A stretch of 64,000 bases of DNA from Nemertoderma westbladi (Eukaryota; Animalia; Xenacoelomorpha). The translations under genes were made by a program, and so were the position numbers. Location: assembly GCA_032718475.1 (NCBI GenBank), contig JAUCBJ010006459.1, positions 1 to 64,000 of the forward strand, in the 5' to 3' direction. The notes beneath the pieces are model-generated. The model did not search any database, was not told where the DNA came from, and was given only the letters and a program-made list of their open reading frames with translations. Shown piece by piece: positions 7,815 through 35,060 of this stretch (the stretch's first letter is position 1; the number at the start of each line of letters is the position of its first letter).

Positions 7815-7925
7815 CTAAAGTGCCTAGTTGAGCGCCGGTCCTGCAATCTATTGGTTGTAGGTTAAACCCCGCCAGGTTCCTCTCAGCCTTTCAACCACTG
7901 GGGTCGATAAAATGAGTAGCAGTTA
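7815..7925 (+). mobile_element. tRNA-derived SINE fragment with conserved central domain
   Basis: A degenerate B-box (GGTTAAACCCC) is followed by TCAGCCTTTCAACCACTGGGGTCGATAAAATGAGTAGCAG. This resembles the central domain of widespread metazoan SINEs (Meta/Nin-type; recalled, not searched). Confidence 0.45.
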
Positions 7926-7944
7926 AAAATTACTGGAAGCAAAA

Positions 7945-9008
7945 CTTGGGATAGGAGTAGCGCCCACCCCTACCTTCGGGTAGCAGATAGGAGTAGCGTC
8001 CACCCCTACATTCGGGTTGCAGATAGGAATAGCGCCCACCCCTACCTTCGGGTAGCAGATATGAATAGCGCCCACCCCTACCTTCGGGTAGCAGATAGGA
8101 GTAGCGCCTACCCCTACCGTCTGGTAGCAGATAGGAGTAGCGCCCACCCCTACCTTCGGGTAGTAGATAGGAGTAGCGCCCACCCCTACCTTCGGGTAGT
8201 AGATAGGAGTAGCGCCCACCACTACCTTCGGGTAGCAGATAGGAGTAGCGGCCACCCCTACCTTCTGGTAGCAGATAGGAGTAGTAGCGCCCGCCCACCC
8301 CTACCTTTGGGTAGCAGATAGGAGTAGCGCCCACCCCTACACTCGGGTAGCAGATAGGAGTAGCGCCCACCCCTACACTCGGGTAGCAGATAGGAGTAGC
8401 GCCCACCCCTACCTTCGGGTAGCAGATAGGAGTAGCGTCGACCCCCTACCTACGGGTCACAGATAGGAGTAGCGCCCACCCCTACACTCGGGTAGCAGAT
8501 AGGAGTAGCGCCCACCCCTACCCTCGGTTGGCAGATAGGAGTAGCGCCCACCCCTACCTTCGTGTAGCAGATAGGAGGAGCGACCACCCCTACCCTCGGG
8601 TACCAGATAGGAGTAGTGCCCACCCCTACCCTCGTGTAGCAGATAGGATTACCGCCCACCCCTACCTTTGGGTAGCAGATAGGAGTAGCGCCCACCCCTA
8701 CACTCAGGTAGCAGATAGGAGTAGCGCCCACCCCTACCCTCGGGTAGCAGATAGGAGTACCGCCCACCCCTACCTTTGGGTAGCAGATAGGAGTAGCGCC
8801 CACCCCTACACTCAGGTAGCAGATAGGAGTAGCGCCCACCCCTACCCTCGGGTAGCAGATAGGAGTACCGCCCACCCCTACCTTTGGGTAGCAGATAGGA
8901 GTAGCGCCCACCCCTACACTCAGGTAGCAGATAGGAGTAGCGCCCTTCCCTACCCTCGGGTAGCAGATAGGAGTAGTAGCGCCCGCCCACCCCTATCTTT
9001 GGGTAGCA
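7945..9008. repeat. 36-bp minisatellite (GCAGATAGGAGTAGCGCCCACCCCTACCTTCGGGTA)n, about 29 units
   Basis: Head-to-tail units with point variants are directly visible, with no unique spacers. Confidence 0.95.
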
Positions 9009-9519
9009 GCTATCGAGAGAGGAGCCTTTGGGTCGCCTCTGGCTTCGGTCTACTTGATTTTTTGTTAGAAATATACATTATACAGATCTGCGCATTTAAT
9101 AAGGGTGTACTGTACATGTGTTCATGGACTGTTATTTTGCACTCCCCGCCAACTCCTTTTTTCTAGTATCTACTATCAGACTGTGACCGTAGATACTTGT
9201 TACTACTGTTAATGTACCATACACTGCAGTACTGGCGCAATGGTGCTCAACAGAACCTGCAGCCCTACAACAACCCTGGGTACTGGTATATTATAATATT
9301 GTAACAATGAATAATTCTGATATTAGTTGATTTAATTATATTAATTACACTAAACCTGCATATTGGCATATAAATAAAGTAAAATTTTTTGCTTTGTCGC
9401 TTATTCAATATCCAATGAAAACAAAAGATATTGAAAACGTGTGAAATTAATGTTGACATAAATACTTTCTACTAACTATCATTCTTTATTTTAATATTTG
9501 TATTATTTTATAAAATTAG

Positions 9520-10900: not shown

Positions 10901-11577
10901 GGATCACTCTGGGAATGGGTGTCTTGTTGGCTGTGAAGGGCATGTATAGTATAGGCGGGGGGGTTGATGAATTATGTGGGAGTGTTTGAGGGATGTGGAC
11001 TGGTGGAGCAGGAATGGTTGGGTTGCGGTTAGTTGCTGGTGCATTGGGTAAAAGAGTTGGAGAGATAGTGGTATGTATGTTTGTTGGAAATGATTGCGCT
11101 ATGGACTAAAAAATATTTGCAATTTAATCAAAGTTAAATTTGCAATTAAACTAATAATTTCAAAATGTCAGGGAAAATATTTTTTAGTTTACGATTGTCA
11201 ATTATATACATTTGCTACAATTATATACAATGAAAACAAACAAAAATCAACAAACAAGCAACAGACGGGTATGGAAAAATTAACATGATTTGATGAAAAA
11301 TATATATGTTACAATTATATACAAATATATATACAACAAACAAATATTATATTATACAACAAACAAACAACAAACTAGCAGCAGGAATTAATATGATTTG
11401 ATTGTAAGGTGTATATATGTTAAAACAAACAATAAGCAGCAGATGGATATGGGGAAATGATTATGATTTGATTATAATGTATGTATGCTACAATTATATA
11501 AATAAACAAACAGCAAGCAATAAACATATGTGATTTATATATACATGCAACAAACAAAATCCCTCAAACAAAAAAAA

Positions 11578-11726
11578 TGCCTCAGTGAGGCGTAGTCTGT
11601 GCCTCAGTGAGGCATAGTCTGTGCCTCAGTGAGGCATAGTCTGTGCCTCAGTGAGGCATACTCTGTGCCTCAGTGCCACAGTGAGGCATAGTCTGTGCCT
11701 CAGTGAGGCATAGTCCATGCCTCAGA
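11578..11726. repeat. 22-bp tandem repeat with palindromic core GCCTCAGTGAGGC
   Basis: About 6-7 copies of GCCTCAGTGAGGCATAGTCTGT. Confidence 0.9.
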
Positions 11727-11765
11727 CCTAAAACTCAAGACTTTAGGAGTGCCTGATGTCTTAAA

Positions 11766-12297
11766 TGTTAGCTTATTCAATCCCGCTAACACCCCATAAA
11801 GTTGTAAGCCGATAAGCAATATTGGGAGCCACGAGATTGGGCAATTAACCAACTCGTGCCATCCCAATAAGAGTGGGAAGGAAGCACACAATAAAGGGTC
11901 AGGGGCCAAACCCCTAACCCAGAGAGTACAGGTGGAGTGAACGGGAACACTCCACGGGGCGCCAACAAGGGTAACAACCAATCAGAGGGGGGCAAGGCAT
12001 CGATTGAGTAGAGCAATAAGGCCACCGTGCAATATAACCAGTAACACAATGTCAGTAATTCAGTTATCTCAGTGCAGTGTAGGTTAGTTAGTTTAGATAG
12101 GGGAGCACGGGACTTTAGTTACCGTATCCCGCCTTCCGTATATTATACTACAGTCATCATATCTATATCTTATACCTATCAATTATTATACACCGAATAT
12201 CAGAACTCATTCACTATTTCCGTTTACTCTTTATACACGGCGGGGACGCGTAAACTAAACACCGGATAAATCGGGATCCCTCCTGGATCCCGTCACA
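11766..12297 (+). repeat. 5' LTR of B (532 bp)
   Basis: Near-identical to 43010-43541 (2 substitutions seen). TATAA lies near 12034 and a TCAGTT Inr near 12060. Confidence 0.97.
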
Positions 12298-12365
12298 GTA
12301 ACTAAATCAGCTGCCGCCCTAGATAAACTCAATAATCAACTAGCACCGAAATCTGCAGAAGAGAG

Positions 12366-15300
12366 ATGAGTCAGTCAGGTGACACGACACCGACGCGGAC
12401 CCCGGACGAAGACCTAACGATCCGCGAGGCCGCAACCAGGCGATACAGGCCCACAACGCCGGACCCATCGGTAACGGGTCATCCGGCAGTTCAGGACGAG
12501 GGGGGCCTGGAACCCGAGGTCGAACCGAGAGAAAGAGAGAGCGGGACGGAGGGAGACGGAGACGAGTCGACACGGGACGGGGGTCGACGCACCGGTGTCG
12601 CCGGCCAGCCACAGGCCGAGGGCGACGAGCGGCCCGCCGAAACGGCGACGGTGGGGCCGACGGTGCGGCCCCGGACGCAGAGAGACGGAGGAGACATCGG
12701 TACCGATGTCGCCGGCCAGCTACAGGCCGAGGGCGACGGACGGCCCACCGGAACGGCGACGGTGGAGCCGCCGGTACGACGTCGAACCCGGAGGGACGGA
12801 GGAGAGGTCGGCGACGAGGACGTCGGGGTTTCAGAGCGACTTCGACGGGCCTACAACGCGACCCGGAAGCTGATGAAGGACGCCAAGAAGGAAGGGGCGA
12901 AGGTAGACGAGGTGAGACTGAGAAAGCGACTAGGTGAGTCGGATAGACACTTTAATTACCTAATACGTTTTGGGCAGAGAGAACTAGCCGAGGAGAGAGC
13001 AAAAGGGGTTGCCGGCGAACTGTTTGAACTATGGGAGTGTGGGAGTATGGAACCTAGCGTAGCGCCAGTGTACATAGGGCCATACTTGGTCGATGCCCGG
13101 GGAGCAAAATTAGTGGGTTGGAGGGGACCCGAGGGGGGCGGATCCGAGGTTAACCCCGAGGATTCGGCCTCGTCGGTCGGAGAAAGTTCCGGGAAGCGGG
13201 GGAAAGTTAGTAGGTCGGGAAGGCGGAGGGGGTCCGCTGTAACCGATAAGTCTGCTACATCCTCCGCGAAAGAAAGAGTGGTGAGAGAGATAGGTGCCGC
13301 ATACCGTCTCAGCATGGTAGAACAAGGTCAGAGGGAAATGGAGGAACGGTTAGAGGAGGGGAGAGTGCGGTTAGCGAGGGAAGCGGCATTGATTAGAGAA
13401 ACCGGAGAGAGGGCCGAAAGGGCTTTGAGAAGCCTTAGGGAGTGTGAGGAAATAGAAGAAAAGGAGTGTAGGGAGCGTGAGGCGAGGGAGCGATAGGGAA
13501 CGCAAAGAGCGTGAGGCGAGGGAGGATAGGGAACGCAAAGAGCGTGAGGCGAGGGAGGATAGGGAACGCAAAGAGCGTGAGGCGGAACGCAAGGAATATG
13601 AGGCGAGAAGGGAAAAGGAACGCAAGGAGCGCGAGGTGAGACGAAGGGAGAGCATTAGGAGTGTAGCGGAGTCGGCCGCCCGGGACACCCAGGAGTGTGA
13701 GAGGAGAATGGGAGAGGCTGAACGAGAGCAAAAGGAATTAAAGAGACGCCAGAATGTGCTTGCGGAAGATAAGATTAGACGGGCGCACGAGTTGCAACTG
13801 GTGCAAGAGTCGCCGTCTGAAAGCGGGGCCGGCTCGAGTGTTTTTGGGGAGCCGGGGGCCGTAGATACATTTATTGATACCCCACTGACAGGGACCGCAC
13901 GACAGACTCAAAACTGGTGCGACCGTACGGGCGGGGGGGGGGGGGGTAATAATGATAATGGTACAGTAGACGTGGTTAATATTAATAGTACCGTATGGGA
14001 CAACTCTAATCAAACCTTTATTACAGGGAATACTTTACCTAGTGGTAGTAATTTAAATTTAAATCAGAACGTCCCTAGTATTAATGTAGAAAATAATTCT
14101 AATATTAATGTAGCTACGCAAAATAATCCAATTAATCAAAGTAATAACCCAAATTCGAACTTACAAAATAATTTAAATAACGCGATTACGCAGAATAATT
14201 CAAATAATTTAAATAATGATCCAAGCCCGAATTTACAAAATAATTCAGATAGTGTAGTCGCGCAATATAATCCAAGTGATTTTATCTCGAACGGACAAAT
14301 TAATTCCGTTTCCAATACAGGTGCTATTAATGTAAATACGTCGGGCGTGTATGGTCAGACAGACGAGGGCCTGGTAGGCCACGTAGTTGGTAGGCAAGGA
14401 GTGGCTGGGTTAGGTAGACCCAGCGAGGGCCTGGTAGGCCACGCAGTTGGTAGGCAGGGAGTGGCTGGGTTAGGTAGACCCAGCGAGGGCCTGGTAGGCC
14501 ACATAGTTGGTAGGCAGGGAGTAGAGGGCCTGGTAGGCCACGCAATAGCAGAGGGAGGGGCGGGGGTGAATAGACCCGACCGCGGTAGGCTTGATGTGTC
14601 GACTGGAGAGGGATATAGTAGCGGGGTGAGGAGTAGCGAAGTTAGATGTGGCGAATGGGGGGGGGGGCTACGAGAACCCCACAACAGCGAGTTAGCGGCG
14701 AAAGGGGGGGGGGGGCAGAGAGTGTCCCACAGCCGTCAGCGGATAATGCGAGGGCCGAAATAGGTAAACCGCAACAACCGGCGACGGAAAGTAATAGGGG
14801 GATTGCGAGTATCCCCAGCGGCGTGCGACCGAGCAGGGAGAGACAGGTTGACGTCGTAAGAGGGCGGACGAAGCGTCGAGCCCGATCAGAAGAGGGAAGA
14901 AGAAGAGTGGGGTTTAACCGGGAGGTCGGCGAGAGATCTCACGAGCGGGAATACTCCACTGAAAGGAGAAGAAGAGAAGACAGTAGTAGAGGTATCGCCG
15001 CGAACGATAGAAGAGCGAGGACGGATGGCGAGCCGTCGGTAGTTGAGATGAGAACGGAGAGTCAGTGGGGTCGGACTCCGGGAGATTGCCGTCGCCCCGG
15101 AGAGATGCGACCCGGCGAGGCGCACTACGCGCCGAGAGAGGGGTACGCGATGTACCGGTACGAAGATGAGAACAGTAGAGAGGGGGGTCGAAGAGAAACT
15201 TTCCGACGGAATACACCTACCGATCGAGAATACGGTAGCCGCGGGGAGGATTATTCGAGAAGAATAAACTTCGATCCCGAACAACACATGCAGACTGTAG

Positions 15301-18300
15301 GACATACTGTAGGCCTTACTGCACATACCGTAGGCCATACTGAGAGAGGCAATGTAGGCGATAGGATAGCGTGGACAATGGGATTAAACCCGGAAGTCGC
15401 GGAATACATACCGGCGGGTAGGCCAGAAGCTGATAGGCCTATACCGGTACCAACACAGCAGTATGACTACAGCATGCAGGGACATAACATATACCCAGGG
15501 GAGGGGGGAATTATTGCGGATAGGTGTATGGGCCCCAACATATTTACATCAACCCCAGTACCAAACATACCGGTGGGGGGTGACAGGGTGACATTCCCCC
15601 ATCACAATATCAACAATATACCCCGATAGTAGCAAGAACAGCGAGACCCTTGGATGAAAACAAGTCGTGTGACACAGACATATGGAGGGGGCCGCTACCC
15701 CCGATGACATACCCAAGCCAGAGAAAGTCAAGAAATAGGACGGACGAACCACACCAGACAGGAGAGACTATACAGCACCCGTCGAATCCATTGGAAGCGC
15801 AGGCGATAGGGATGGCCACGTTGATCGATGCGTTGAAAACGAGGATCGAGTTACCACCCGTGGAACCATTCAAATTCGATGGGAGCAGGCCGGAGGAATA
15901 TCTACAGTTTCGGCGAATGTATAGTAACGAAATACTAACAAAAAACTTGACGCAGGCGGAGTCTACAAGTGTACACGGGAGGCCCAGCATACGACATCGT
16001 GAGGCAATATCAAGGAATAGAGGGCGGCCGCTGAGGGGCATAACGTCGGGTGGCCTACAGGATAATCCTGTTAGCATTAAGACGTTCGCTAACAAAGTCG
16101 AAAAGGCGCTAATCGTGCTGAAGACGCTAGACGCGCCGTACGAGCTCAATGCGTCCAACAACATCACAACGATAGCGCAGGCACTACCAAACTGGCTGCG
16201 CAACAAGTGGAGAAAAATCGCCTTCTCTACTCGAGATAAGAAGGGTGCGGAACCGGGTTTAGAAGAAATGTCAAACTTCTTAAACTACGAGGCTGAACTA
16301 ATAACTGACCCAGTCTATAGCGAAGACAGCCTGGGAAAGGGACCGAAGACAGACTACCATAGACCGAAACCAGAGCACAACACATCGAACGCATTACCGA
16401 GACTCAGGCAATCATTGCCATATGCAGCGACGCAGGGGACTGCAAGTCCACAGCTAGCCGAGGATAAGACAACATCATGGAACGGACAGGGAAACAATAA
16501 TAACACGAATAAACATAACCCCAGTACGTCCAATAGGCAAAACCCAAACAATAAGAATAGTAGGGACTTTGGTACAAACGCAACTGCGATACGCAATGCA
16601 CTGTATAAAGAGGGCTACGACCCAAAGAGCAAATGTCAGCTACACGCAAATGCGCTTCATCAAACTATGAACTGCAGGTACTGGCAGGCGCTACCTAGGC
16701 AAGATCAGATAGATTATGCGTTCAGCAATAAAATCTGCTCGCGATGTGTAATGAGTGGACATAGAGCAAGGGAGTGTAAGGAGAAGCCAATGAAATTTGG
16801 TCAAAGGAGAGGCCAAACGATGGCGACGAGCACAGTAGGGGCGAAGAAGAGAGGAACGGTGCTACTTGGAGTAGTACCAGTACGAGTGATCGGAGAAGGC
16901 AATCGATCAGTAACAACACTAATGCTGGTTGATAGTGGAGCTGCCTTCACATTAGTCGAAGAATGGGTGGCCGTGGAGATAGGATTGAGAACGAGGCCGA
17001 GCAGGATGGCGGTAACAACCATCTCTAGCAAAGATGAGGTCCTGGAGATGAGAACAGGACGGTGCGCAATTGCAGCAGTGGCACCAGGATGCGACTATGG
17101 GGCAACCATCGACCCCATTCAAGTGATAGAGTCAATTAATATCAATGCTAGGCGGCCAACCAACATCGAGGTCGAGCAGTACAAATTCCTGGACAACATT
17201 GACTTCTCAATCCCAGACGTGGACGTTAGGAAGGTGTCCATCCTTATTGGGTATGGACTGCCCAACGGCCCACGAAAGAATGCAAACGGTCTTCGGGGAA
17301 GACAAGCAGAGTGACCCGGTGGCCATATTAACACCATTCGGGTGGACGCTGAGTGGTCCAATTAAGAGCAAGATACCATTTAGGATGTCGGAGACATCAG
17401 GATGCATGTTCGCGGGAACAATGCAGGAAATGGGTGACGAGGGAGCAGAAGAGCAGCTTAAAAGACTGCTCAGACAAGATTTTGAGGGACTGAAACAGAC
17501 AGGGGTCGGGACCTCAGTAGAAGACAAGCAGGCTCTACAAAGCGTGGAGGAATCAATGAGATGCGATGAGGGACGGTATACTATAGGAATGGTATGGAAA
17601 CTACCGAAGATACCGCTGCCCGACAATAGGGGGATGGTGCTCACGAGACTCCGCAAACTGAAACAAACACTAAAACGGAGCCCCGAGAAGAATGAGTATA
17701 TCCACAGAACAATTAAGAAGTACGTCGAGAAAGGATGGGCCGTGGAGTTACCGGTCGACGAGCCGAACACGGATAGAACATATTACCTGCCACTGCACGT
17801 GGCTTTAGATCCAAAGAAAGGTAAACTAAGGATGGTAGTCGACGCATCGGCAAAGACCGACGGAAAATGCTTAAACGATTACATGTTAGAAGGCCCAAAT
17901 ATTTACAATTCGGGCATAGAGGTGTTACTTAGATTTCGAAATGGGAAACACGCCTTCACGTGTGACATAGAAGGCATGTTCAACCAAGTCCGTGTAACGG
18001 AAGAAGATAGCGACAGTCAACGCTTCTTATGGTATAACGGCGAAGAAGAACCGCCGATAATACCAGCATATAAGATGGTAGTACAGAACATGGGGGACAA
18101 GTCGTCTTCATTTACGACGACTATGGCAGTGAGAGACACAGTAAAGGGGAAGGAAGATAGATACAGCAGTAGGGCCGTCGATATGATTCGACGCGGCTTC
18201 TACGTAGACGACGGAATGGAGTCTGGAAATACGGTTAAAGAAATACTGGACACCGGGCGCGAGGTTCGCGACATCCTAAAAGGATCCGGCTTTAACCTGA

Positions 18301-18616
18301 CCAAATTCCAATCCAGTTCAGAAGAATTTATTAAGGCGATAGAGGACAGGAGACCAGAATCGACCATGGACAATCCCACAACAGCCAAAGGGCAGGACAT
18401 GGCGATTAAGAGAACAGAATCTCAACAGAAGGCATTGGGAATCGTGTGGGATAGAGAGACAGACGAACTGAAGTATCAGCTGAGCCAAGAGGGCGCAGAC
18501 ATCCACACGAAGAGGGGCTTTGTATCGTATATAGCAAGGATATACGATCCCCTAGGCCTAGCATCCCCATTATTAGTCACGGGGAAACAGATACTCAAGA
18601 GAGTATACAAATTGAA
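12366..18616 (+). pseudogene. B gag-PR-RT (5' part) with several frameshifts, stops and deletions; interrupted by A
   Basis: Consecutive ORF pieces give a coiled-coil and Asn-rich gag N-terminus, FKFDGS, CSRCVMSGHRAREC, protease LVDSGA, and RT motifs YYLPLH, DIEGMFNQV and FYVDD. Confidence 0.92.
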
Positions 18617-18742
18617 TATAGAATTATATTCCCTAAATGCCGTGGATTTTCAAAATTTGATTTTATTCGGATTAACTTTGTAAAGATTGCTTTGAGTTCT
18701 CATTCGTATTGGTTCTATCATTTGTACATCTATCGGTCAAGT

Positions 18743-18829
18743 GGTTCAGTAGCTCAGTCGGTAGAGCGTTGGAAATTATATGTGTAGTAGGTGTTGAGTT
18801 CGAATCCTAGTAAGTGCGAATTATTTTTT
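18743..18829 (+). ncRNA. tRNA-like Pol III cassette in U3 of the A 5' LTR
   Basis: TAGCTCAGTCGGTAGAGC (A box and D arm), GAGTTCGAATCC (B box, 18796-18807) and T6 at 18824-29. There is no acceptor stem or normal anticodon arm. Confidence 0.7.
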
Positions 18830-18879
18830 GTACAGAATTTCAACTCATTTAAATTAACCGCTACAAATTAATTGCATTT

Positions 18880-19060
18880 ATCTGTACCAATGAGACTGTA
18901 GTTATTTGATTGTAACCAATGTCGTGCAAGTTATATATTAGCTGGACCAATAGCTATCTTTAAAACCCCGTTAGAACCCATAGAACAATCGAGAATTTTC
19001 TCGATTGATTGCGGCACAAATTTGCTATATAAAGGTGCGATTTGTTCATTAGTTATTCAC
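18880..19060 (+). promoter_or_regulatory. Pol II promoter of LTR A: three CCAAT boxes, HSE-like palindrome, TATATAAA at 19026-33
   Basis: CCAAT at about 18887, 18916 and 18947; CAATCGAGAA-TT-TTCTCGATTG at 18986-19007; TATA box followed by TTAGTT about 20 nt downstream. Confidence 0.65.
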
Positions 19061-21340
19061 TTCTACTTCACAGATTATCTTATCAATATTCTGTTGTGCT
19101 TAGTTTATTTCAGATTACATTGTACATATTATTATAATCTTCTGTAATAAAGTCAGAATATTCTCTCAGCTTTTCTATCTGTTTTACTATGGATTCACTA
19201 CGGTGAACTAACTCAGGGACAGGATGGCCGGCTAGAGATCGGGCCGCAGCAATGAACGGGAACATCACGGGAATGTAGACGAGAGACAACCCGCAATACC
19301 ATTTAGAGTTATTCGCCCATCGCCTGAAAGGTTAGACAGCGTTCGATCCTTGCTACCTAAGTGTAAGACCAAAAGATCAAAAGGTAGACGTAGTGACACG
19401 CTGTAAGCCCAAAATTACATCATAGGGACTGTACTGTCTTGATTCAGGAAAACCCACAGTAGACCTTCACATTCCTACGGGGGGGGGGAGAGAGAGCGCA
19501 GGCAGATACTAGTACGCAGATAGGACGTAGGCACACCGGTACAAGGCATACACATTGGTTAGGGTGCAGCAAACTGTACGCTTAACTCTTGCTAAGTACA
19601 GGTGCGTGTGCGACTATTTGCAGTACGACAGTGTCCATTACATCAGAACTTGTAGGCTAGGGGGTTGCTGTGTTTTTACCTGAATTGGGATTGTACCGTT
19701 CGGGCGGTAGGGCAGTTTACGTACTAGGCGCAAATAAATTGAGGCTATCAGGGATATACTAACATCTACCGTGTCCCCGCCAACGCCCTAATAGGAAGTT
19801 ACCCGGACTACCTGGGTGACTAAAATTCTAGATAGGAGCCAGGATAGCTATTAGTACCTGTACGCCTACAGTAGTAAACTAACACATCTCTTCTTAGTAT
19901 CAGGGACCTGGTACCTAAAATTGCCGAATTCTGGGCGTAGTATTAACCTTATGCCTGAATTTGAGTCCTGGAAATACGCAAGAGGGGAAGGAACCTTATC
20001 ATTCGTGAGTATTGGACCTACAAGTTACAAAATTAGAATATTCGTAAATGCACACCGTACCCAGTAATTATATATGTGAAGGAGCAAAACTGTTTTGACC
20101 GTTCAGAATTAACACGCGCGTTAGAAATTATTTACACCTCGAAATATATAAAATTAACTTTTGTCCGTACTGTGCTTTGCCCGCTAGTTAGACATCTCCA
20201 AATCTCTGCCTGTACCTAGCTAGCGTCTCTTTGCCCAACCATATAAATCACACCGCGGCAAGGTATACGAGCCTCTTAGTCCGTCAGTGAGTCAGCCTGA
20301 TTTTAGGATTCGCTGCGCGGGATTTTGTTTTATCGAAGTTTGTCTGCTCGTAGACTGTTTTCTGCCTCACCGGTTATAAGAGATCGATACTGCAATATAT
20401 TCGCTTACTTAGTTTATTGTTTTGGTGAGAAGGTCGGATTTATGATTTGATTTACAAACTTTACAGTAGGATATTGCAGGTATTGTTACCGTCTCTTCGC
20501 ATAGTAGGAATAGGCGTATCTCTTCAATTAGTAGGAATATGTTTTACTGAACTACGGTTCGGTAGGACTAAAGTTATTTGAAAATTCTGTATTTTGAGGT
20601 AAAAATTTGTATTTGATTAGCTAAGTGCTAATTTTTTGAAATAAAATTTGATTTGAACCGCGTGTAAAATATTTTTGGAATTGAATACCGGTGTTTTAAA
20701 AGGGTTTAAATACCATATTGTACCGGTACAAAATTTTCGTAAAAGTAAAACCTAACTCTTTTGTTTTTTCAGGATTCAGAACTCATTTCTAGACTGTAAC
20801 GGGAGCAAGACCGTGTTTAGCAAGTTTGGGAGATAGATAACTCAACAACTTTGGTTGGGAAAATCGCGTTTCGTCCGCAACGTTAAAAACGGAAAGGTTC
20901 ACGTCCGGTTTGTATCTGGGAATCTGTTTTTCTGGAGAATTATTGGAGTGGGTGAGTTCGAAAAGTTGCATAAATAAGTTAGGCATTACCGTATTAGTTA
21001 AAAATTATTGTGGGTTCCACTGTCTCAAGTATTTATGCATTCCGTATGATTTCTTTGTTCATTGCTGAATTAGTCCGTATTATTGTATTTAATTTACCTT
21101 TTGATAACGCATATCGTTATCCGAATTATTTGTTATAAAATTGGCCGCTAGGCTAATTTTATTATATACTTATTCCGTGACATTTATTTGCTGTAAAATT
21201 GGCCGTTTAGGCTAATTTTATCCATCTGCTATAAAATCGGCCGGTAGGCTAATTTTATAAGACTGTAATTAGTACCGTTTAGATAAATACGGTAAACTCG
21301 ATACTTTGACACTCACTTTACTTGACTTACAACTACCGAA

Positions 21341-24300
21341 ATGAGTGACAAACAAGACTATACGAAAAATACACAAACCGACTATGACTCATGTGACGCG
21401 GATAAGTCAGCAGCGGAAGAACAACAGGGGAAGACTCGCGAGCCTACCGAACCTACACCGTGTGCATCACCAGTACATCCAACGGGAGTACCGGATGCCG
21501 TAGTACGAGGCGACGGCAGGACCGAGGACTTTCTAACTGTTCCGCAACCTAGATACAGGGAAACGGAAATGGTAAGTTCAGCAGGAAGCACAGAAAGTGT
21601 GGTTAGAAGCGTCGGTGGATACATGGCGCATATAACCAGGAGTATTGGAGAAGGCCAACGCTTATTAGACGGGTTGACCGCTCCGATGTCTCGATTCGAG
21701 TTCTACACCCTCCAGGTTAGAGTGCAGAGTAAAGTATATAAGTCCGTAGATAATCTAGTTGGCCTACAAGATCTAGCTAGACAGAGACAGGACATGGATA
21801 CTCAACTTAGAATCCTCGAGAAACTAATGATCACTAGAGAGAAACTGATTCAGTTTAAGTCGACGATTAGACAGATACAACAGGAACAAGCGGACCAGTT
21901 GTTAGGTGAGTCAGTTTCGGACGAATTATTACAACCCGAGGAAGAACAGGAACTGTACCGACTGGATGGACAATTGAAACATCTGACGGACCACTTACGC
22001 ATGTGCGGCGAGGACGTCGGAGATTGGGAAACCGTGCCGGAGGCTACGAGGGAAACTTCACTCGCACAAATCAAACCGGTACCGGGAACACTAGATCAAT
22101 CACTGGTGAGTATTCGCAGCGAAATTGGCGAGGTGAGTATGGCTACGTCAGAAATTGCTCGACAACAGCAGATCTACAGACAACAACAGGAGTGGGAGGA
22201 ACAAACTCAACTCATAATGGCACAAGCAGCAGCAGAAGAAGAGAAACTACGCGTTGCGAATGTTGCGAGAATCTCTCACCTGCAAGAACAAGCTGAGTTG
22301 GAAGTAGCCAAAATGGAAAGGTTAGAGTTGGACATTGCACAACAAGCGGCAGCGGCCGAGTTAGCGCAACGAACGGCAGCGGCCGAGTTAGAGCGACAAG
22401 CGGCAGCGGCAGCGGCAGCGTCCGAGTTGGAGCGACAAATGTTAGCTTCAGAAGCGAGAACCGAAATGAAAAAACGGCAAATAAAGGCTCAATCAGCGAT
22501 ACGACAAGCGGAGTTCGAGGCGCAACAACAACAAACGGAACAACGCGAGAAAGAAGTTAAACTTCGTTTCGAACTCGAGAAGAAGGCGAGAGAATTAGCC
22601 AACGCCAAGGAAGACCTGGATCTACAAGCCCGCGATCGATCGATGAGATCTCGAGACGGACATGATTTAGACCGGTTGGAGGTAAGGCACCGCCAAATCC
22701 AGGAACGAATGAAGGAAGGTTCGATAGGAGCACCCGGACGGGAACGACAATTAGTAAAAGACTTGTGTCAACGATTCCCACAAGTAAATCCTATGTTTGC
22801 ACCAGTTACGACTAAGGAACCTGTTTCGATTGCGGGTAGTAGTAACATTTCTCCTATCTATGGTGCGACGGAACACAGGTTTGTTATTCCGGACGAGTTT
22901 ACACCGCCAAGAGCAACGTCGTCGCCTATTCCGAAGGTCAAGGTAAGTAACCCGCCGATTACAGATCGTAGTAGTTTATTAGTCGGACCTGCACTACTGA
23001 CGACTAAACAGGTGAGTCCACCTCTGACGCCACAACCTGTTACACACTACGCTTACCCAATGACGTTTCGACCTACAAGGCCAGTTGATTCAAATGCTGT
23101 CATTCGCCCACCGGTTCAGTTTACATCGCAATCTACGACTTCAAGGAAGACTTGTGAGCCTACCGAACAACGGAGAACAGTGGATATGCGACCGTTCAAC
23201 CAGTTTGCATCGCAATCTACGACTTCGAGGAAGACTTGTGAGCCTACCGAACAACGGAGAACAGTGGATACGCGACCGTTCAACCAGTTTGCATCGCAAT
23301 CTACGACTTCGAGGAAGACTTGTGAGCCTACCGAACAACGGAGATCAGTGGACGATGTTCCAAAGCAAAACGTTAGAATTCGTACGACGCAACGGACGCG
23401 AGCACGTCGACCACCGTATCCAGGTGACAGTAGTACTTCGAGCGAGTCGGATTACCCGGAATGCGAGGTATTTAGAACAGGAGCGGCCGACAAATGTAAA
23501 CGTGAGCGTTCGGATAATTCATTTATCGACAATCCTCCACAGAATACACCAACACAAAAGGCGTTACAACCAACAGACGCGATCAGTACACAACAGTTCG
23601 CCGACATCCTGCGACCAGTTGTTAACAAGTTGGCTCAGATCGAGGAACGTCTAGAGGAAGGTTATACCGACAGTTCGAGAAATTCCGAATTCGAACACAA
23701 TAGACACCCGAAGGAACCACAAAGACCGGTACCTTCAAACCCCACATCGTATCAGGGAAAAGCGCCAAGAAGGGATATCAACAAGGTTACCAACCAAGGA
23801 CGCGAAACTCTGAACGTTGCAGAGGAGATAGCGAAATTCGCAGCCAGACAGGGATTGCCGGTACAACAACCACCGAAGTTTTCCGGTAGCTCAAAACACT
23901 GGCATACTTTCGTAGACTATATCGAATCCCAGATCGCTGTGTGCGCCTTTACATCACGGGAGAAGTTCAATTACCTGCTCCAAACGTTGTCAGGAGAACC
24001 TAAACGTTTGGCGGAGACTTTCGTCGGTGTACCGGACGCTTTCGAACTAGCGTACGATCGTTTAACTTCGATATACGGAGGTACAGTTAGTATGGCCAGG
24101 TCAGTAATAGAGGAACTCTGTAAGGGAGGGGCTATCACTAAACCCGTCGACTTACTAAAACTAGCTGACGAGATCAAGAACGCTATCACTACCTTAAGAT
24201 CAATTGGACAACTTGATTACGGGAATACCCCTACAGTCCTATTAAAGATAATAGGACGACTCCACCATCGACTTCGTCGGGAGTGGAGGAAGGTCGAATA

Positions 24301-27300
24301 CCAGCGAGAAGAGCGGGGAGGATTCTTAAAATTAGAAGATGTGTACCTTTTAATATCCAAGGAGGCAGTAGTAGAAACTAGATCTAACTACACCGACCAG
24401 CACATCGTGGCAGAAGGAATCACACTGCCATCCTCCAACCGACAAAAACCCCAGACAACATCCACTAAGACGGCCACTTACACCACACCGACGGAATCAC
24501 GACAATTCTCGGACGGAGGTAGGGTATCTGCGCCCATTGGGACAAAACAAACGAGACAGCAACTTGGTACCGACTTCAGTGGCTGCCAATACTGCGAGCA
24601 TCTAGGTAAGCGGTATATCGGTCACAAGTTACGAGGTTGTCGACAATTTCGCGAGTTGAACTCGGAAGAACGACGGCTGCAAATACGGCCACTGGACTCT
24701 TGTTGGCAGTGTACGCGACACGGACACGTCCGTAAAGATTGCCCAAATACCGACACTTGTCCATCCTGTGGACGCAACCACGACGGTCTGCTCCACACAG
24801 ACAGCCACACGCCGACAAAACGCTTCGCCAGGGAACACCCGGAAGCAGCAGCGAGATGTGATGCGGCCTATAGAAAACGAGAATCGAAAACGACTCCAAC
24901 CTTCGTGACCCATATTGAGGATTGCTTCTCAGAACAATCCGGATCGTCGGACGAAGAATCAGAAGACGACGAATATTCCAATGGAGACGAACAACCGTCG
25001 ATCGCGCTTCTGACCACTGACCAACTGAAGGGATTCAGTGTAATCCCGATTAAGATCACTGGCACAAAGGGGAGTAAGAGGATCTACGCGATTCTAGATT
25101 CAGCCTCATCTCATAGCTACGTGGATGAAAAGATAGCTGACGTAGTGACGGATCTTAAACAAGGTAAGCATGTCAGTTATACAGTAAGTAGTATGCACGG
25201 ACAGCGTGCAATACCAGTAACACGAGTTAAGTTGGACTTAGACACTCTTCTTCCGAAATCGCAACACAGCGAGAGGGAGAGGTCTTTGTTGCCCTTTAAA
25301 GATCTAACCTTTGCGGCCACGAAGGACTTTAGTAACCTACTAGGTCCAGTGCCGGAACAATCTCTAGAGGACCGTAAGTATTTCAGACACCTTGGTGTAC
25401 CTGAATGTCCTGTCAATTATAGATCGGTAGCAATGCTGATCGGGACAGACCAATTCAACCTACATCAGGTGTGGGAAACCAGACCATCGGCAGTTGTAGC
25501 GGGAAACGCATACGCCTGCAGAACGCCGATAGGGTGGTATACTCGAGCGCCTGTGCGCACACTAGACGTAAGTGACGAGGAAGACGATGTACAGAGTACA
25601 TGTAGTTTATTAACTACAAATTCAATTCATTCCTTCTCACACGACGTGAACCATACTACACTACAGTCGACAAAACATAACAGACGTGTAACTAGTATGA
25701 TAAGTCACAAGGAGCAGCTAATTCACCAGGTGAGTTTAGAACTTGGGGAGAAGACGAGTCAGCTAGAGATTCCATCGACGACAGATGATAGGCTTGCGAG
25801 TCTACCTACCCCAATAACCTCAACAGTGCCCGTCGAGATCGATGATGACGCGTTGAGAAATCATCAGTTGGAACAAGCTGTACTAGACAAGGAATTAACG
25901 GAGAAGACTATCAGGTGGTTAGAACAAGATACAGCTGAACCTGGTAGCTACGAACCTTGTATGTCGGAACAGGAGAAACAATCTCTGAAGATCATGGAAG
26001 ATACTATCCACCAGACGAAAGACGGACATTATGAGGTAGGGATGTTATGGTGTAGCCAAAGTCCTAAACTCATAAACAACTATCCACTGGCTTTAAGACG
26101 TCTACACTCAATACGGCAACGTCTATTAAAGGACGAGAAGGCCCATCTGCAGTACAACACTCAGATGGAGACGTATTTGACTAAGGGATACGCTATCCGA
26201 ATGACTAACCCAGAGATAGAGACTGACCAGACATACTACCTGCCACATCACTATGTGAGACATCCCGACAAACCAGATAAAGTACGCGTAGTCAACGACT
26301 GTGCGGCTCTGTTTGAGGGAATGTCCCTCAATAGTGAGTTGATGGATGGACCAAACATGAATAATTATCTTATGGGGGTGATTATGCGCTTCCGTCAGCG
26401 TCAAGTAGCTTTTACTTGTGACGTTGAAGCGATGTTTCACCAAGTGAGAGCGTTAGAGCGAGACAGAGACAGTTTGCGGTTCCTCTGGTACCCGGAAGGA
26501 GACTTAAGTCTACCACCGGCGACTTACCAAATGCAAGTTCGCGTTTTCGGTGCCAGAGACAGCCCAAATTGCACGATGTACGCCCTAAAGCAGGCCGCTA
26601 GGGATCAGAAACACCTGTATGACCCAGAGATAATTAGGATTGTGGAGCGTGACTTTTATGTAGATGACGGTTTACAGAGTTGCGACACAGTAGAACGTGC
26701 TACAACAGTAGCACATCAATTACGGGACTGCTTAGCGGGCGGAGGTTTTAACCTCACCAAATTCGCCTCAAACAGTGCCGAATTAGTAGACTCATTCGGG
26801 ACGACTGAGCGTGGAGGTGGTGACATAGACCTAGAGTTCGAACCACTACCGACGACTAAGGTGTTGGGGCTCTTTTGGGACCCAAACACAGACAACTTTC
26901 GAGTGAAAGTGAGACTGGACAGTCAAGAGAACACACTGACAAAGAGATCATGCTTGTCAAAGTTGAGCCGATTGTTCGATCCGTTAGGATTCATCAGTCC
27001 AGTGATACTGCAAGCCCGCATTTATATGCGCAGTATATGGAAGGATGGAATAACATGGGATGAGCCGATCTCATCAGACCAAGTGGACTTATGGAAGACC
27101 TGGGAGGCGGAATTATCTTCGCTAGAGGATTATTCCATACCCAGGGTTTACTTTCCATTACAAAGTACATTTCCTGACAACTTGGAACTACACTGTTTTT
27201 CTGACGCCAGCGACAACGGTTTTGGTGTGGCAGCGTACTTGCGCAGACAAGTAGAATCAGACGAGTTCGATGTTTCGCTCATTACTTCTAAGGCTAAGAC

Positions 27301-30033
27301 CATGCCTACTAAGTATATGACGACACCACGAGCCGAGCTACAAGCCGCAACCCTGTCAACCACCATCGTGAACCTCATACAGACAGAACTACAGTCGAGT
27401 TTACAGATATTTTATTGGACTGACGCGACGTTGGTTTTATTTTACATAAACAACGACACACTCGAATTCAAGACATTCGTTGCTAACCGTCGCGCGGAAA
27501 TTCTAGACCGTTCAATAAAAGGGGATTGGCGACATTGTCCCGGACCACAAAACCCAGCTGATATTGCGTCGCGAGGAATGATGCCTGAGGAATTCTGTAA
27601 ACCGGAGAACAAAGAATTTTGGCAACACGGACCCCAGTTCTTGCAGAAATCGACACAAGATTGGCCTCCGTTATACGACAACAAATCTAACACTATCCCA
27701 AAGGACGCCGAAATCAAGAAACCAAAAAAGGGGAAGACAAAGAAAAGGACGACGGCGGCAAAACTCAAGAAAAAACCGAAGGCGAAATGGAAAGATATAA
27801 CTTCAAAGGTCAAGAGAGGAAGACTTGCGAGCCTTTCTACACCAGACATATCGCCAGACGGTCAACCAGACGCGTTACTAGACGGTCAACCAGACATTCT
27901 ACCAGACACTAGTGACATACTGACAAACAGTAAAGCCGCAGTTTCCCTATTGGAGCGGCCTTCTATTGACAAACAACCAGATACGTTACCAGACGTATCG
28001 CCAGACACATTACTAGACAGTCGACTAGACATTTTGTCAGAAACATCACAAAATGTTCTACCGGACATTAGTAATTTATCGACTAACAGTAAAGCCGCAG
28101 TTTCCCTATTGGAGCGGCCTTGTATTGACAAACTACCAATTTTGACACACTTGAGCAACCATAAGCACGGTGAAACCTCATGTATTACAGATGTGGGTAG
28201 TACCTACGCTAATGTAAATACAGGTGTTACTTTGCGCTCAAGAGACATACCGAACTTGCAACCTATGGTGAAACCTGGGATTAATATCGGCAGAAAAATT
28301 AGTTTACCGAAACCCACTGATCCCATAGAGTTCAAACCACCATTAACGATCGACTTACAAAGTACCGACAATCAAGGTAAGAAGACAAAGAAGGACAAAT
28401 TACTTGTAGACCCGGACGGATCAACAGTCAACAAGGGAATACCTACCGGCGGACCCGTGGGCCCTTCTAGTAATTCAAAACCTTCCAAAATCTCAATTGA
28501 CTTACCTGATGACGTCACAAATACTCATGTCGACCGTATTGTAAACCTAACAGATTCTTGGACAAACGCTTGCCGAAAATTAGCGTGGATTGTACGTTTT
28601 GTACAATACGTTAAAGGCAAACGTGACTTTACACGTCGACTTACATTGACTGAGATTGACAGGTGTGAAATTAAATTAATTCGCCATTACCAACTGCGAT
28701 ATTTCGCGCGCGAATTCACATCTATAAATCAAGGTCAACCAATCAAGTCGTCACCAATACTGAGTTGGAGTCCGATTATTTATAATGGCTTAATTTGTCA
28801 TAAATCTCGGCTTCAAAACATTGACTTTAACACAAACTTTAGGTACCCAATAATAATACCGCAACACCACGAACTACAACGTGCAATGATACTGGACGCA
28901 CATCTACATCTGAAACACGCTGGAAGACACCACTGTCTTTCCTACTTACGTACTAGATTTGTATTAATTTGACCCAGTAAAGCATTAAGTTCAGTGACAC
29001 GTACGTGTATTATTTGTAAAAAGGTACATTCTAGAATAGGTACCCAAGAAATGAGTGAACTACCACAAGCACGACTTCAAGCATTCAAACCACCTTTTAC
29101 AGAGACGGGAATTGATTGCTTTGGTCCCATACATACGAAACGTGGACGTATACTAGTAAAACGCTGGGGACTGATTTTCACATGTATGTCCAGTAGGGCA
29201 GTTCACATTGAACGTGTGATGGATCTTTCCACCAACGCGTTTATACTAGCACTGCGGCGATTTATTGCTAGACGCGGACTAGTAAAATGCTTGTACTCAG
29301 ACCAAGGGACAAACTTCGTTGGTGCTCGGAATGAGATTGCTAGAGCCTTTAAGAAATTAGATCATGATCAAATCTCGAACGAACTGCAACCTCACAAGAT
29401 TGTTTGGAAGTTCAATCCTCCAGATAGTCCTTGGAGAGGCGGAGTCTGGGAGAGATTAATTAGATCTATAAAGACAGCCATGGCAAAGGTCATTCCAGTA
29501 AACCACATATTAACAGACGACCAACTGACAACATTGTTGAAATCGAGGCAATACTAAATACTAGACCAATAGTATTAGTACCCGATGACAAACAATCTCA
29601 ATTTGCTTTAACACCAGCACACCTGCTAATGCAGGCACCGACTACTTTGACGCCGATTTCTATTCCAATAGAAAGCGACAGCTACGGTAGAAAAGCGTGG
29701 AAAATCACGCAACTACTAGCTAACAAATTCTGGGAAATATGGCAAAACCATTATTTGCCCTCTATTTCTGCCAGAACAACTTGGTACAATAACACCCGCG
29801 CATTAAAGCCGGGAGATCACGTGCTGTTGGCAGAAGTGAATCTAAAAAGACGCTTCTGGATAACAGGTGTAATTTTAGCCACACATCCATCTATGGATGG
29901 AGTGACAAGAACTGTGACGGTACGGACAATTGACGGTCGTACAGTAGACAGACCGACTCAACGTCTCGTACTTCTTGAAGAGACTCGTAACGAGTCTGGA
30001 GACTACAAATCTCCACCTAATACTAGTAAATAA
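21341..30033 (+). pseudogene. A gag-pol polyprotein (Gag, PR, RT, RNase H, IN); nonsense at 28970 and 4-bp deletion near 29535, both in the integrase region
   Basis: A 2543-aa ORF plus two downstream pieces. Motifs: ILDSAS, FYVDDG, FSDAS...RAEL...WTD...NPAD, H..HAG..CIIC, DCFGP, SDQGTNF, GGVWERLI and a GPY/F-like tail. The lesions are defined by comparison with A'. Confidence 0.95.
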
Positions 30034-30700
30034 TTAGGAGTTTACAAATAGATTTCCACGTACCTGTACACTGTAGTAAGGACAGCGGTGGGATTCCATT
30101 GTCTTTATATGTGAACATTGAGGGTAGTACCCTTATGTGTCACATAGGAGCGGGATTTGTAGGTATAAGAAATGTAATTCTACTTGGAACTCACAATATT
30201 GAGACATTTTTGAAATTTTAGACAATCCATTTGGATTTGAAAATTTTTAAAAATTTTCTCCAGTGAATAGATTTCAGGGTACAGTCGGGTGGAACTTAAA
30301 ATTAGAGAAACAAGAGAGGAAGACTTGCGAGCCTTTCTTAAAAAAAAAATTTTTTAATTAAATTTTACACGGTCTTGTTTCAATAAGTTACGTCGAAATA
30401 GACTCCCCTATATTTATTACTAATTCTTGATTGCTTATTTTCTGATAATAGTTTGGGATCAAAAGGTGAGTATTTTAGACTCACAGCCAGTTTAGCCCAA
30501 ATTCGTTTTTATTTCGGCAAAAAATTTTAGATAAGAAGCAGCGTGTCATTAAAGAAACCTTAGATCTTAGGCTATGGGTAGGAGGTTAGAGCGTTGTCGA
30601 AGCCCAAAGGGCAGACGAAACTCTCACGTCTCCTCACAACTAACTACAAACTCTGTTGTATTCCCTCTAGTAGTAATGATTATGTAACTACACCCTAATT

Positions 30701-33700
30701 ATGGAGAAAGGGATACAAGGAGAGCCGAGATGGGGATATGATATCCAAGAGGAGGCAGCAGCGCCATTCGAAAGATTTGGAGCCAAGGATTATACTATAT
30801 TTGGTATAAAAGAATTATCGGAAAGTACAGCGAAACTCGTGAGAACTAAATATGACTCGAACGTATTAAAGAGAAGGCAAAACGCATTAAACGAAAGAAT
30901 CGAAAGTTTGCGCCAAACCTTCAACGAACTTTACCCGTACGATGCTTTGTGTGATACGGGAGACATTAGCGAAGACCCCGATACTGAAATTAGTCGTTTG
31001 TATCATACCATGCAATACCTAAAGGCGCATGAACCTATGCCCGCGGTACGCGATGAATTCGATGGAATGCATCTTTACAGACGAACTCGAGGGGACGATA
31101 GAGAAACCAAGGAAGCATTTTCAGTTTATAAACTTTATTATCAATGCGGTTCTTGTATGCGCGAACAACGAAATGCGATTCCGATGCGTTTGAATAAGGA
31201 AAATCCCGAACCGATATTGGCGAGGTGTTCGAATCATCAACAACTACGCTACCAGGAAGGAGGGTATCCTTTATCGAATCCATATCATTCATTTGCTATG
31301 ACCGGACCAAAGGCGGGAGAAACTGTCATTTACCCACCTAAGGTTGTTGAACCCGATGTATTTGAACTTACGCTGGACGAGGCGAATCAGTCAACCCGCG
31401 AAAAGAAAGAAGCTCTTAGCCTATACAGAGCCTACAAGGCTTTCGAGAAAGGTGAGATGGAAGAATGGGGTGGAAGACTCGCGAGCCTACCTTGCCATTG
31501 GACGTCACACGATCAAACTTCAGCTAAGGAGATGACACCGGAAGTTTTCGAGAGCATAAACTTTGCTCAAAACGTTATTCAGAGACTACAGATTGCATCC
31601 CCGGAGAGGCCAAGAGAAATGCAACCGTATAGTACTTCAACTACGAAACCATTGAGTACGACACTCAATTTCCCTATTAGTATACCAGTCCGACAGGATA
31701 CGACGTACGAAATACCCATCGTGGATCATCCAGAAATCATTTCAAACTTGGAGTTTCTTCCTGCAGTTGTTTTCAGCGATATGAGTAAGATATATGATTT
31801 ACGTAGACATATTACTCAAAAGGTCGTGCACAACGTTCCACCTCATATTCAAGATTTCAAGGAACTGGATAGAGCTGGTGCCGACATAGCTCCAAGTAAT
31901 CTGAAAGGATATCTAACCAAGACGATTCGTTTATGGATTGGAACCGGAACCTTCGAGTCGGATACAGATATTGCCGCAGATTGGCGAGGTAAGGTTATTC
32001 GTTTCGATGAGGATAAGGATATAGAGAAGATTTGGCAACCTTCGGAAGAATTGTTGGATGAATGGACTAGGACGTTTAGATCGTTTCAGGAAAACGGTTA
32101 TATGTTTTACGATAACGAGGGCGGCAGTCATCAGCAGAGTTTGACTTCTAAGACTATACAAATTAGAGCGGCGGACGGAGTCCTGCACGTTTTCAGTAGA
32201 CAGAGGAGCGACAAACGAATGCCGATACCTCCAGCGAATACAAAGCGACACCATCTTATCACCGATATAGTAAAGAAGATGGACCAAGCCTGTAATATTG
32301 ACGCTAGAATGCTACCGAAGATGGTAAGAAACATGATTTTAGATAAAACTGTTGTAAAGGTTGGATCAGGAGTAAGGGAGGATTTAATTAGCGACTTCGC
32401 CGGCATGACGGACAGCGATGACCGACTACCGACACCATACGTCGACACTCGACCTCTTATTCTGTGGTCTATAGAACAGGGATATTTTCGTGAGTATAAT
32501 ACTCAGAAGACTGGAACTGGATACATTTCCTACCTGTTATTCAATTGGGATTATAAGGAAAATAAGAGAAACAAGTATATTGAAACTTATGGAGAAGGTG
32601 ATACTCCAGATATGAGTGAGTTTGAATCACAGCTTAAATGGAGAGGATGCATGTATTGGGCTATTACGTCACCTCCAAGAGCGGTCTTACAATATTATTT
32701 AGCGATAGAGTCGTCAGTGAATGTTTGCCTAATCGCCGACATTGTGTCTCGGACTCTCAAAAGACATCCACTTTGTCTCGGAGAAGATCATACGTTCTAC
32801 ATGGAAGGGAGAATTCGTACCGACGTGTTTAGACGATTCCTTGAACCCTTCTACAACTCCGACGCTCAGTGTAATGCCTTTACTCGAGCAGGATTTAGCA
32901 TATTTCGAGACGTGTATCTTCGCTGTGCGGGATCTCTTATCGAAAGACCATCTATGTTTACACTGTTACCCAATGAAGGAGAACGTATCGTGGAAATTAC
33001 GGATGAATCACGGCAGACGCGCGCGCCTATCGGTCACCTTGGTGATGAATTCGAAGTAACTACTACGATCGCCGACGATCCTTTAGAGGAACTTCTTGAG
33101 ATAGAAAGGAACCTCCCGAAGAAATCTCAGACGGAGATTCGACAACTTGAAGCAACAGATGCTATAGTTTGTATACAACCTTCAGAAACCTACCAACCCA
33201 TAGACCCAGATGATTACGATTATAGTGTGGGAGGAAGCGCTCGACCGATTGGAGATCTTATATATGAACGAGTGTGGTACCCTGCGAATACGATGTGTAG
33301 TAAATGTGGCGTCGCTGGACATCATATGGCAAAGTGCAGTGGAAAGCACATTACTACGACTCAGCTAATCTGTGGATGGTGTGGGGATCAAGGGTCTCAT
33401 ACCTTTTATACTTGCTGGAGATTTATGGCCCAATGTACTTATTGCAATATAAAGGGACATCGAGCATCTGAATGCCAACTAAGGGACATACCTTATGAAC
33501 ACGAATCTGTAAAACTCGTGAGGAAGTTATTTGATGAGTGGGAAGATTTAGCCGACGAACATGTATCAGCACAAAGAAGACGGTTTCCGTTGAGAGCGCA
33601 TCTCGGATTTTGGGCGGTAAATCCCCAGACGATGATGTCGGAAGGATATATCTCCGCTATGCCCCAATATGACGAACTTATCGAGGTTGTCGATATTTTG

Positions 33701-34426: not shown

Positions 34427-34499
34427 AAGGGAGGGCAAGGGTGGACGTAAGACTCGTGAGCATTTCTTATGATTTGTGATTTATTTTGAATTATATGTT

Positions 34500-35060
34500 T
34501 TATATTTAGAAAATTTAGTAAAACTTATATTTTATATTTGTGCTTATTCCGAACTTATGCAATTTGTATTGTTCCGAATTTATGAAATTTAGAAATAAGA
34601 ACTTATATTTTGTAAAACTTATATTTAGTAAAACTTATATTTTATATTTGTGATTATTCCGAACTTATGCAATTTATATTATTCCGAACTTATGCAATTT
34701 ATATTGTTCCGAATATTATGCAATTTATATTTTATGAGCAGTATTACAGTGAAACAGAAAGTAAGGGTAGATGGAAGACTCGTGGGCCTTTCTTATAGTT
34801 TCATTTGTAAAGTGTTATTTTGTATTTAGAAAGTTTTATAGTCAGAAATTTGTGCTTAGAAAGACTCATATTTGTAATTATTCCAAACTTATGCAATCTA
34901 CATTTAGGCACGAAAGTATTTGTAATTACTTGAATTTATGCAATATTTGAGATGCAATAGTAGATGGAAGACTCGCGAGCCTTTCTTATTGTTTTCATTT
35001 ATTTGTATTTGTAATTGTTTGAATTTATGCAATATTGAGATGCAATAGATTTATATTGGT
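34500..35060 (+). repeat. AT-rich degenerate repeats (TTCCGAACTTATGCAATTTATA) in the 3' UTR of A
   Basis: About 8 visible variants of GAAyTTATGCAAT; also present in A'. Confidence 0.8.

Follow-up and report, generated by a model that had tools for sequence, protein, structure and literature searches.

Element B, a BEL/Pao retrotransposon of the xenacoelomorph Nemertoderma westbladi, probably primes reverse transcription with its own RNA, whether with a 5' fragment or with the 3' end of that RNA; judging from its sequence, we put the probability of this reading at about 0.7. The window, that is, the whole stretch of DNA analysed, comprises 64,000 nucleotides (contig JAUCBJ010006459.1, positions 1 to 64,000 of the forward strand). 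Where the 5' LTR ends is fixed by both LTRs and the target site duplication: the LTR closes with GTCACA, and GTAACTAAA follows at the primer-binding position (12298-12306). Its exact 9-nt complement, TTTAGTTAC, lies inside the LTR at 12114-12122, and the last base of that complement pairs with the base that directly follows the LTR (12298). The 9-mer TTTAGTTAC occurs three times in the window, at 12114, at 43358 and, on the minus strand, as the primer-binding site (PBS) itself, and the longest exact LTR complement found at leader offsets 0-69 is the one at offset 0. The original prediction had described this arrangement with coordinates that were all correct; its estimate that a 9-mer would arise by chance with a probability of 0.002 was too low, since the 9-mer turned up in 84 of 20,000 dinucleotide-shuffled LTRs (0.004). 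Its claim that the complementarity supports self-priming is borne out by a stronger signal than it had stated, as an extended complement, described below, beats 2,000 of 2,000 shuffles.

The CCA ends of tRNAs need a TGG in the template. As had been predicted, the primer-binding position is without one, and none occurs in 12298-12400; since there is no TGG within 100 nt past the LTR, the 3' end of a mature tRNA cannot bind there, and the 18-nt site for tRNA-Arg or tRNA-Gly that marks BEL/Pao elements is lacking over the same interval. ARAGORN found no tRNA in the whole window, and Rfam gave no match at an E value of 1 across 11700-21400. The search of tRNA 3' ends that the original prediction had proposed agrees: four 7-mers from the sites of B and of the neighbouring elements A and C were absent from all seven supplementary files of PMC13524379, which include metazoan tRNA 3' 12-mers and test mature 3' ends only.

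The class of the element was read from its proteins, and its PBS departs from the family profile. Comparison of the window with itself revealed nested LTR elements. Element B runs from 11766 to 43541 on the forward strand and is flanked on both outer sides by TTAAA (11761-11765 and 43542-43546). Its LTRs (11766-12297 and 43010-43541) are of the TG...CA form, 532 bp each, and differ at two positions (99.6% identity); the 3' LTR carries the second copy of the 9-mer at 43358-43366. The region from gag through protease and reverse transcriptase (RT) to the start of the RNase H region occupies 12336-18616, and the remainder of pol, with Peptidase_A17 (RNase H region), integrase and DUF5641, resumes at 37227-39395. 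Between the two, a nested BEL/Pao element, A, is inserted in the RNase H region (18617-37204, forward strand, with LTRs at 18617-20530 and 35281-37204). An extra open reading frame in the env position (40606-41862) is followed by a purine-rich tract (42986-43009) that ends in GGGGGGGAG and directly abuts the 3' LTR at 43010, as in BEL/Pao elements. Because the Pfam domains stand in BEL/Pao order (Asp_protease_2, Peptidase_A17, Integrase_H2C2, rve, DUF5641; Asp_protease_2 just below and rve also below the Pfam cut-off) and PF05380 is present in 14 of 16 homologues of its RT, B is a BEL/Pao retrotransposon. In an RT tree of 15 rows, which contains neither named reference elements nor an outgroup, A and B have 34% identity in their RTs.

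The coding region of B (12336-18683) is split over five frames despite LTRs that are 99.6% identical, which points either to errors in the assembly or to a defective copy that was mobilised in trans, and because of this splitting the copy in the window may not reflect an active element. Tandem arrays occur inside B between the integrase and the extra open reading frame (39531-40144, units of 30-63 nt), as well as at 7842-9121 (36-nt units) and 11552-11747 (22-nt units). On the minus strand, 45013-47500 holds a degraded piece of gag that shares about 71% identity with B and has no LTR.

Just inside the LTR end, the GC-rich 8-bp hairpin that had been noted at 12272-12292 is indeed present, with pair probabilities of 0.7-1.0 in 35 of 35 folds; it lies in the deepest contig block and shows substitutions at 12279 and 12282. 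Since another 8-bp hairpin is found at 11932-11955, this type of hairpin is not unique in the LTR, which also opens with a 7-bp hairpin (11766-11791, TGTTAGC...GCTAACA). A repeat of the 5' arm of the LTR-end hairpin, ATCGGGATCC, lies near the purine tract at 42934-42943; it could pair with the 3' arm of that hairpin and is a possible circularisation signal.

Complementarity between leader and LTR continues beyond the 9-mer. Up to about 12354, the leader (12298-12369) mirrors LTR positions 12062-12122, the predicted primer segment, as a degenerate reverse complement in colinear order: between 57 nt of leader and 61 nt of LTR, 44 of 62 alignment columns match, the first nine perfectly, and a weak alignment fringe reaches back to 12037. 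The score of the local DNA alignment, 46, is reached by 0 of 2,000 LTR shuffles, whose highest value is 37, and without the 9-mer core the alignment still scores 34 against a shuffle maximum of 30 (0 of 2,000). Chance as the source of the extended match is excluded. When folded as RNA, 12064-12122 pairs with 12298-12369 in a rod with interruptions that comprises 45 pairs, over an interval picked after the fold had been seen, and 44 of these pairs are of the Watson-Crick type, which 1 of 1,000 shuffles matched; the modelled leader pairing extends across the first ATG (12366). An anchored duplex with 45 nt on each side has an energy of -33.4 kcal/mol (1 of 1,000 shuffles), and with the core fixed the duplex reaches -46.3 kcal/mol against about -31, a value as good being found in 6 of 2,000 and 3 of 2,000 shuffles, depending on the side shuffled. 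Taken separately, the distal part of the rod is significant (8 of 2,000 shuffles) and the proximal extension is not (810 of 2,000), and for anchored energies over 25 nt offset 0 only tied for eighth place among 400 leader offsets, many of which are GC-rich. The surplus of pairing energy over shuffles levels off at about 12044-12064, near the predicted transcription start.

That start is predicted near 12062 from an AATATAA (12031-12037) and a TCAGTT (12060-12065), found by motif search, which resemble TATA and initiator consensus sequences and may be promoter elements of B; a CCAAT lies upstream at 11978. With these motifs as a guide, the 9-mer is predicted to occupy about +53 to +61 of the transcript. 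The 9-mer has a second potential partner, GTAAACTAAA at 12250-12259, which is nearly a copy of the PBS and competes with it, and in the uncut RNA of this copy of B the 9-mer favours the internal near-copy (12253-12259) over the PBS. Across 35 choices of start and end, the probability of the primer helix in uncut RNA is 0-0.23, and the primer fold is at best 1.6 kcal/mol worse than the competing fold; once a nick is modelled at 12122|12123, the pair probability of the primer helix becomes 0.9. A predicted stem of 12123-12133 with 12239-12248, which begins one base past the primer end and encloses the variable central part of the LTR, has both arms in blocks of high contig depth; against shuffles it is not significant (832 of 2,000).

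Six or seven public sequencing runs hold part of the stretch, all as contigs and none recorded as RNA; four of the seven were compared with the window in one analysis and two, X1 and X3, in another, in which they have 377 and 294 contigs, respectively, on 12092-12326. Where the 5' LTR begins, on its left side, contig depth increases roughly tenfold. Past 12307 it falls from 35,847 to 4,962 in X1 and from 23,737 to 4,181 in X3, about 6-7-fold, and some B subfamilies diverge directly past 12307-12308. Summed depth, which is not a copy number and to which X1 may contribute the window's own sample, is 57,000-71,000 over 12108-12131 and 1,100-2,200 at 12148-12155. The complete table of 28 substitutions for X1 and X3, which holds those at 1% or more and can hide rarer variants in very deep blocks and near contig ends, has none in 12092-12144 or 12283-12326. 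Among the 12 indels listed out of 43 in these two runs, an extra T just before the 9-mer reaches about 5%. Both 9-mers thus look conserved in the B family while their surroundings vary; depth suggests that the sequence of the distal rod is not conserved. The covariation that the original prediction proposed to look for was not seen in X1 or X3, where neither 9-mer has a substitution at 1% or more. The sole candidate is a rare variant in X3 (two contigs, with depths of 38 and 13) that departs from B after 12304 and whose PBS is altered from the eighth base on; it is not linked to an LTR. A further run, X6, which we guessed to be RNA, is without cover over 12107-12513 and is uninformative either way. 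Outside these runs, a search of viral contigs for relatives of the B RT gave three pattern matches and no relatives, and seven loci in metagenome contigs that match the hairpin pattern were set aside as chance matches, as none was similar to the window.

The competing site varies in the family: substitutions and insertions occur at 12254-12262 among the family contigs, and loose ends at 12261 (14 and 8 contigs) reveal family variants with an AATAAA hexamer at the position of the near-copy. Given this variability and the AATAAA, the competing fold may be weaker in other copies. The hexamer (position 12252-12260) is likely a poly(A) signal by its sequence, and, as the poly(A) site would then likely lie downstream of the 9-mer, the 9-mer would be part of R and strand transfer would be possible after a cut.

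Elements A and C offer support for self-priming that is weaker than that from B. The LTR of B is unlike either, as had been claimed: blastn against A returns one 12-mer (E 0.12) and against C nothing. Given LTRs without meaningful similarity and RTs of A and B as distant as noted above, B stands as support independent of A and C. At the PBS position, A has a complement of 8 nt in its own LTR and C one of 10 nt; the complements of A and C do not align column to column and so are not counted as compensatory change. Because the second LTR of C lies outside the window, its LTR end is inferred rather than fixed. Anchored energies for C are significant (1, 4 and 8 of 300 shuffles, the last value at another site), and those for A are marginal (19, 15 and 121 of 300); forcing the LTR-PBS pairing in full-length folds costs 8.4 kcal/mol for A and 14.6 kcal/mol for C. 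Element A carries tandem GTAGGA motifs at 20466, 20504, 20531 and 20562, and its LTR ends just before 20531, while a minus-strand sibling stops matching at the 20504 motif. The LTR ends of these two siblings are offset by 27 nt and fall at separate copies of GTAGGA, so that the motif seems to dictate where the LTR stops, which is what a primer site would do, and is silent on whose RNA primes.

Several further features of these elements were observed. The differing GTAGGA ends (20466-20570) suggest growth of the LTR of A by slippage of the primer site, and this LTR starts and ends with TA rather than with TG...CA. A second complement between LTR and leader of A pairs 20152-20170 with 20562-20580, at the fourth GTAGGA (3 of 300 shuffles). 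Stretches resembling a tRNA A-box and B-box occur in U3 of A (18740-18825, plus strand) and of C (about 7375-7265, minus strand), and a similar tRNA-like stretch lies beside B at about 43600-43670; ARAGORN scored none of the three, and Rfam did not score that of A. A second copy of A, 5'-truncated and 97% identical, occupies 49331-62889 on the minus strand and adjoins an open reading frame for a LINE-type endonuclease (47974-49374).

In the form of self-priming that we favour, with somewhat better than even confidence, the primer would be a 5' fragment of about 61 nt of the RNA of B, freed by a cut after 12122. This fragment is the likely one because the mirrored LTR stretch starts near the TATA-like and initiator-like site. 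First, transcription would begin near 12062. The first 61 nt of the RNA would then pair back onto 12298-12369 as an interrupted rod, and a second stem starting at 12123 would place the bond 12122|12123 at a helix junction. A nuclease, by analogy with Tf1 the RNase H of B, would cut this bond and leave a 3'-OH paired to 12298. From there the RT would copy 12297 back to 12123, and the resulting strong-stop DNA would jump to the 3' end of the RNA (43367 up to the poly(A) site behind the hexamer). Finally, plus-strand synthesis would recopy the last primer bases in each cycle, so that the 9-mer stays perfect; the remaining leader may have descended, with decay, from an excessively long primer copy produced when plus-strand synthesis once extended deep into the primer, or may be kept for pairing. 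A primer built by splicing was considered and rejected for B, as no GT/GC-AG junction gives an edge-flush complement longer than the unspliced 9 nt; for C an 11-nt spliced, edge-flush complement exists only with a weak GC donor. Sites resembling splice donors do lie in the LTRs upstream of the complement (A, 19331; C, 6611 on the minus strand; B, 12083), and an intron from such a site into the leader would strip both complement and PBS from the mRNA.

We consider it unlikely that the primer is a host RNA fragment, such as a tRNA half or another small RNA with a ...UAC end, and that the rod is a regulatory switch hiding both PBS and start codon. Certain copia lineages are known to prime with half-tRNAs (PMC6317226), a host primer would likewise keep the PBS constant across the B family, two near-equal folds exist, and GTA opens the PBS position in each of A, B and C. 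However, the three elements would then require two or more distinct host RNAs, the LTR of each element matches the PBS of that element (over 8, 9 and 10 nt in A, B and C), and the exact end of the perfect match at the LTR edge would be left unexplained; the absence of the four 7-mers from the seven tRNA files also argues against this explanation, as far as mature 3' ends are concerned.

Less probable still is priming from the 3' end of the RNA, in which 43306-43366 would pair with the leader after the RNA tail had been cut or trimmed to 43366, possibly by the product of the extra open reading frame, and R would be 12062-12122. The same 61 nt in the 3' LTR do bind the intact leader in a two-strand fold, with a gain of 9.6 kcal/mol. 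The extra open reading frames of B and A (30680-34426) are homologous (E 6e-7) and share the motifs D-x-E, KVG...D and Y...D/E, which are reminiscent of those of DEDD 3'-5' exonucleases; that of A also has zinc-knuckle-like stretches. If this protein is an exonuclease, priming from a trimmed 3' copy at 43366 is allowed, and DEDDy ORF3s are reported from rotifer LTR elements (PMC5408684). Yet the resemblance to DEDD 3'-5' exonucleases is weak: one of two members matches DNA polymerase III epsilon at E 0.032, an alignment with RNase D is in register, hhalign probabilities are 7% and 0.2%, Pfam gives no hit, PDB holds no match under E 0.3, and the predicted fold (pLDDT 30) is unusable. Among 1.84 billion representatives no real relative was found, the one hit being driven by a repeat, and a word search found none. 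Furthermore, about 130 nt separate the 9-mer from the likely poly(A) hexamer downstream, so that much of the tail, a predicted stem included, would have to be trimmed away, and the pairing of the 5' fragment in cis is local and should win kinetically.

A broader scheme strikes us as doubtful: the BEL/Pao lineages of this animal would have replaced tRNA priming with a long self-primer of about 60 nt, all of which was at one time copied into the leader, together with an exonuclease of their own, encoded in the env position, that trims the RNA 3'-5' to the end of the duplex; there would be no cut of the Tf1 type, and the competing fold, which overlaps the poly(A) signal, would act as the switch. 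That the leader is left over from a single inverted duplication event, or arose by chance, and has no present role in priming is very improbable: its nearly pure Watson-Crick colinearity does fit descent by copying, its distal part appears not to be conserved and the LTR segment is rich in TTAG units, but none of 2,000 shuffles reached the extended match, a relic would not retain a perfect match, without listed variants, at just the nine edge bases, and a primer of some kind would still be required.

Should a fragment of its own RNA prime B, as we favour, BEL/Pao would be the third LTR superfamily with Tf1-like priming, and the definition of the family would change. A self-primed branch may explain why annotation based on the PBS misses such elements, and it would escape host control exerted through tRNA fragments. 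The mirror leader of about 60 nt would provide a route, from sequence only, to the length of the primer in other families, and B offers exact coordinates at which RNA ends can be tested (12062, and 12122/12123 or 43366). No report of a self-primed BEL/Pao element was found in the literature within our search, outside of which lay most subscription papers and Repbase entries. In the accessible text of a BEL/Pao survey (PMC3118150) and an annelid survey (PMC8556966) we found no mention of PBS, tRNA or priming, and that of PMC3286476 and PMC13524379 contains nothing on self-priming. Where self-priming is discussed in the portions available of PMC3601003, PMC5443660 and PMC5445492, it is tied to Tf1, chromoviruses or a hypothetical ancestor.

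The ICTV profile of the Belpaoviridae describes an 18-nt PBS for tRNA-Arg or tRNA-Gly and priming by a host tRNA, and calls BEL/Pao replication poorly understood (PMC8742986). Element B resembles this family in LTRs within 0.2-1.2 kb, the order PR-RT-RH-IN, the purine tract, the Pfam domains and an animal host. In contrast, it lacks the 18-nt tRNA PBS, measures about 13 kb without its insert where the family spans 4-10 kb, and carries an extra open reading frame that is not env-like (PMC8742986). Fungal GalEa elements of the copia type, as described in PMC5445492, have a Conserved Hairpin Site and no LTR sequence complementary to it; B is similarly without a tRNA PBS and has a hairpin near the LTR end but, unlike GalEa, possesses an LTR complement. 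Self-priming has been predicted for plant Tcn1 (Ty3/gypsy) and TAR/Houba/Osr-1 (Ty1/copia) (PMC6317226), and for these, as for B, it is deduced from complementarity between LTR and PBS, apart from Tf1. B belongs to another superfamily and host, and the accessible text describes no long mirror leader for the plant elements.

The closest likeness is to the Tf1/sushi type. The primer of Tf1 is the first 11 bases of its own RNA, cut by RNase H (PMC7175516), and Tj1 has been proposed to self-prime in the same manner (PMC4600332). Like Tf1 and Tf2 of Schizosaccharomyces pombe, Tj1 and the Tf1/sushi elements in general, B has no tRNA PBS, and the sequence behind its LTR is complementary to a segment of that LTR, flush with the LTR end. 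Priming of the Tf1/sushi type requires a cut at the end of the segment, which for B is predicted only. In contrast to the 11-mer at +1 of Tf1, the perfect match of B is 9 nt long, is predicted at about +53 to +61 and forms part of a mirror of about 60 nt. Nor is the pol of B of the Ty3/gypsy chromovirus type that defines Tf1/sushi, its domains being those of BEL/Pao. By analogy, B most likely works like Tf1 without being a member of the Tf1/sushi group.
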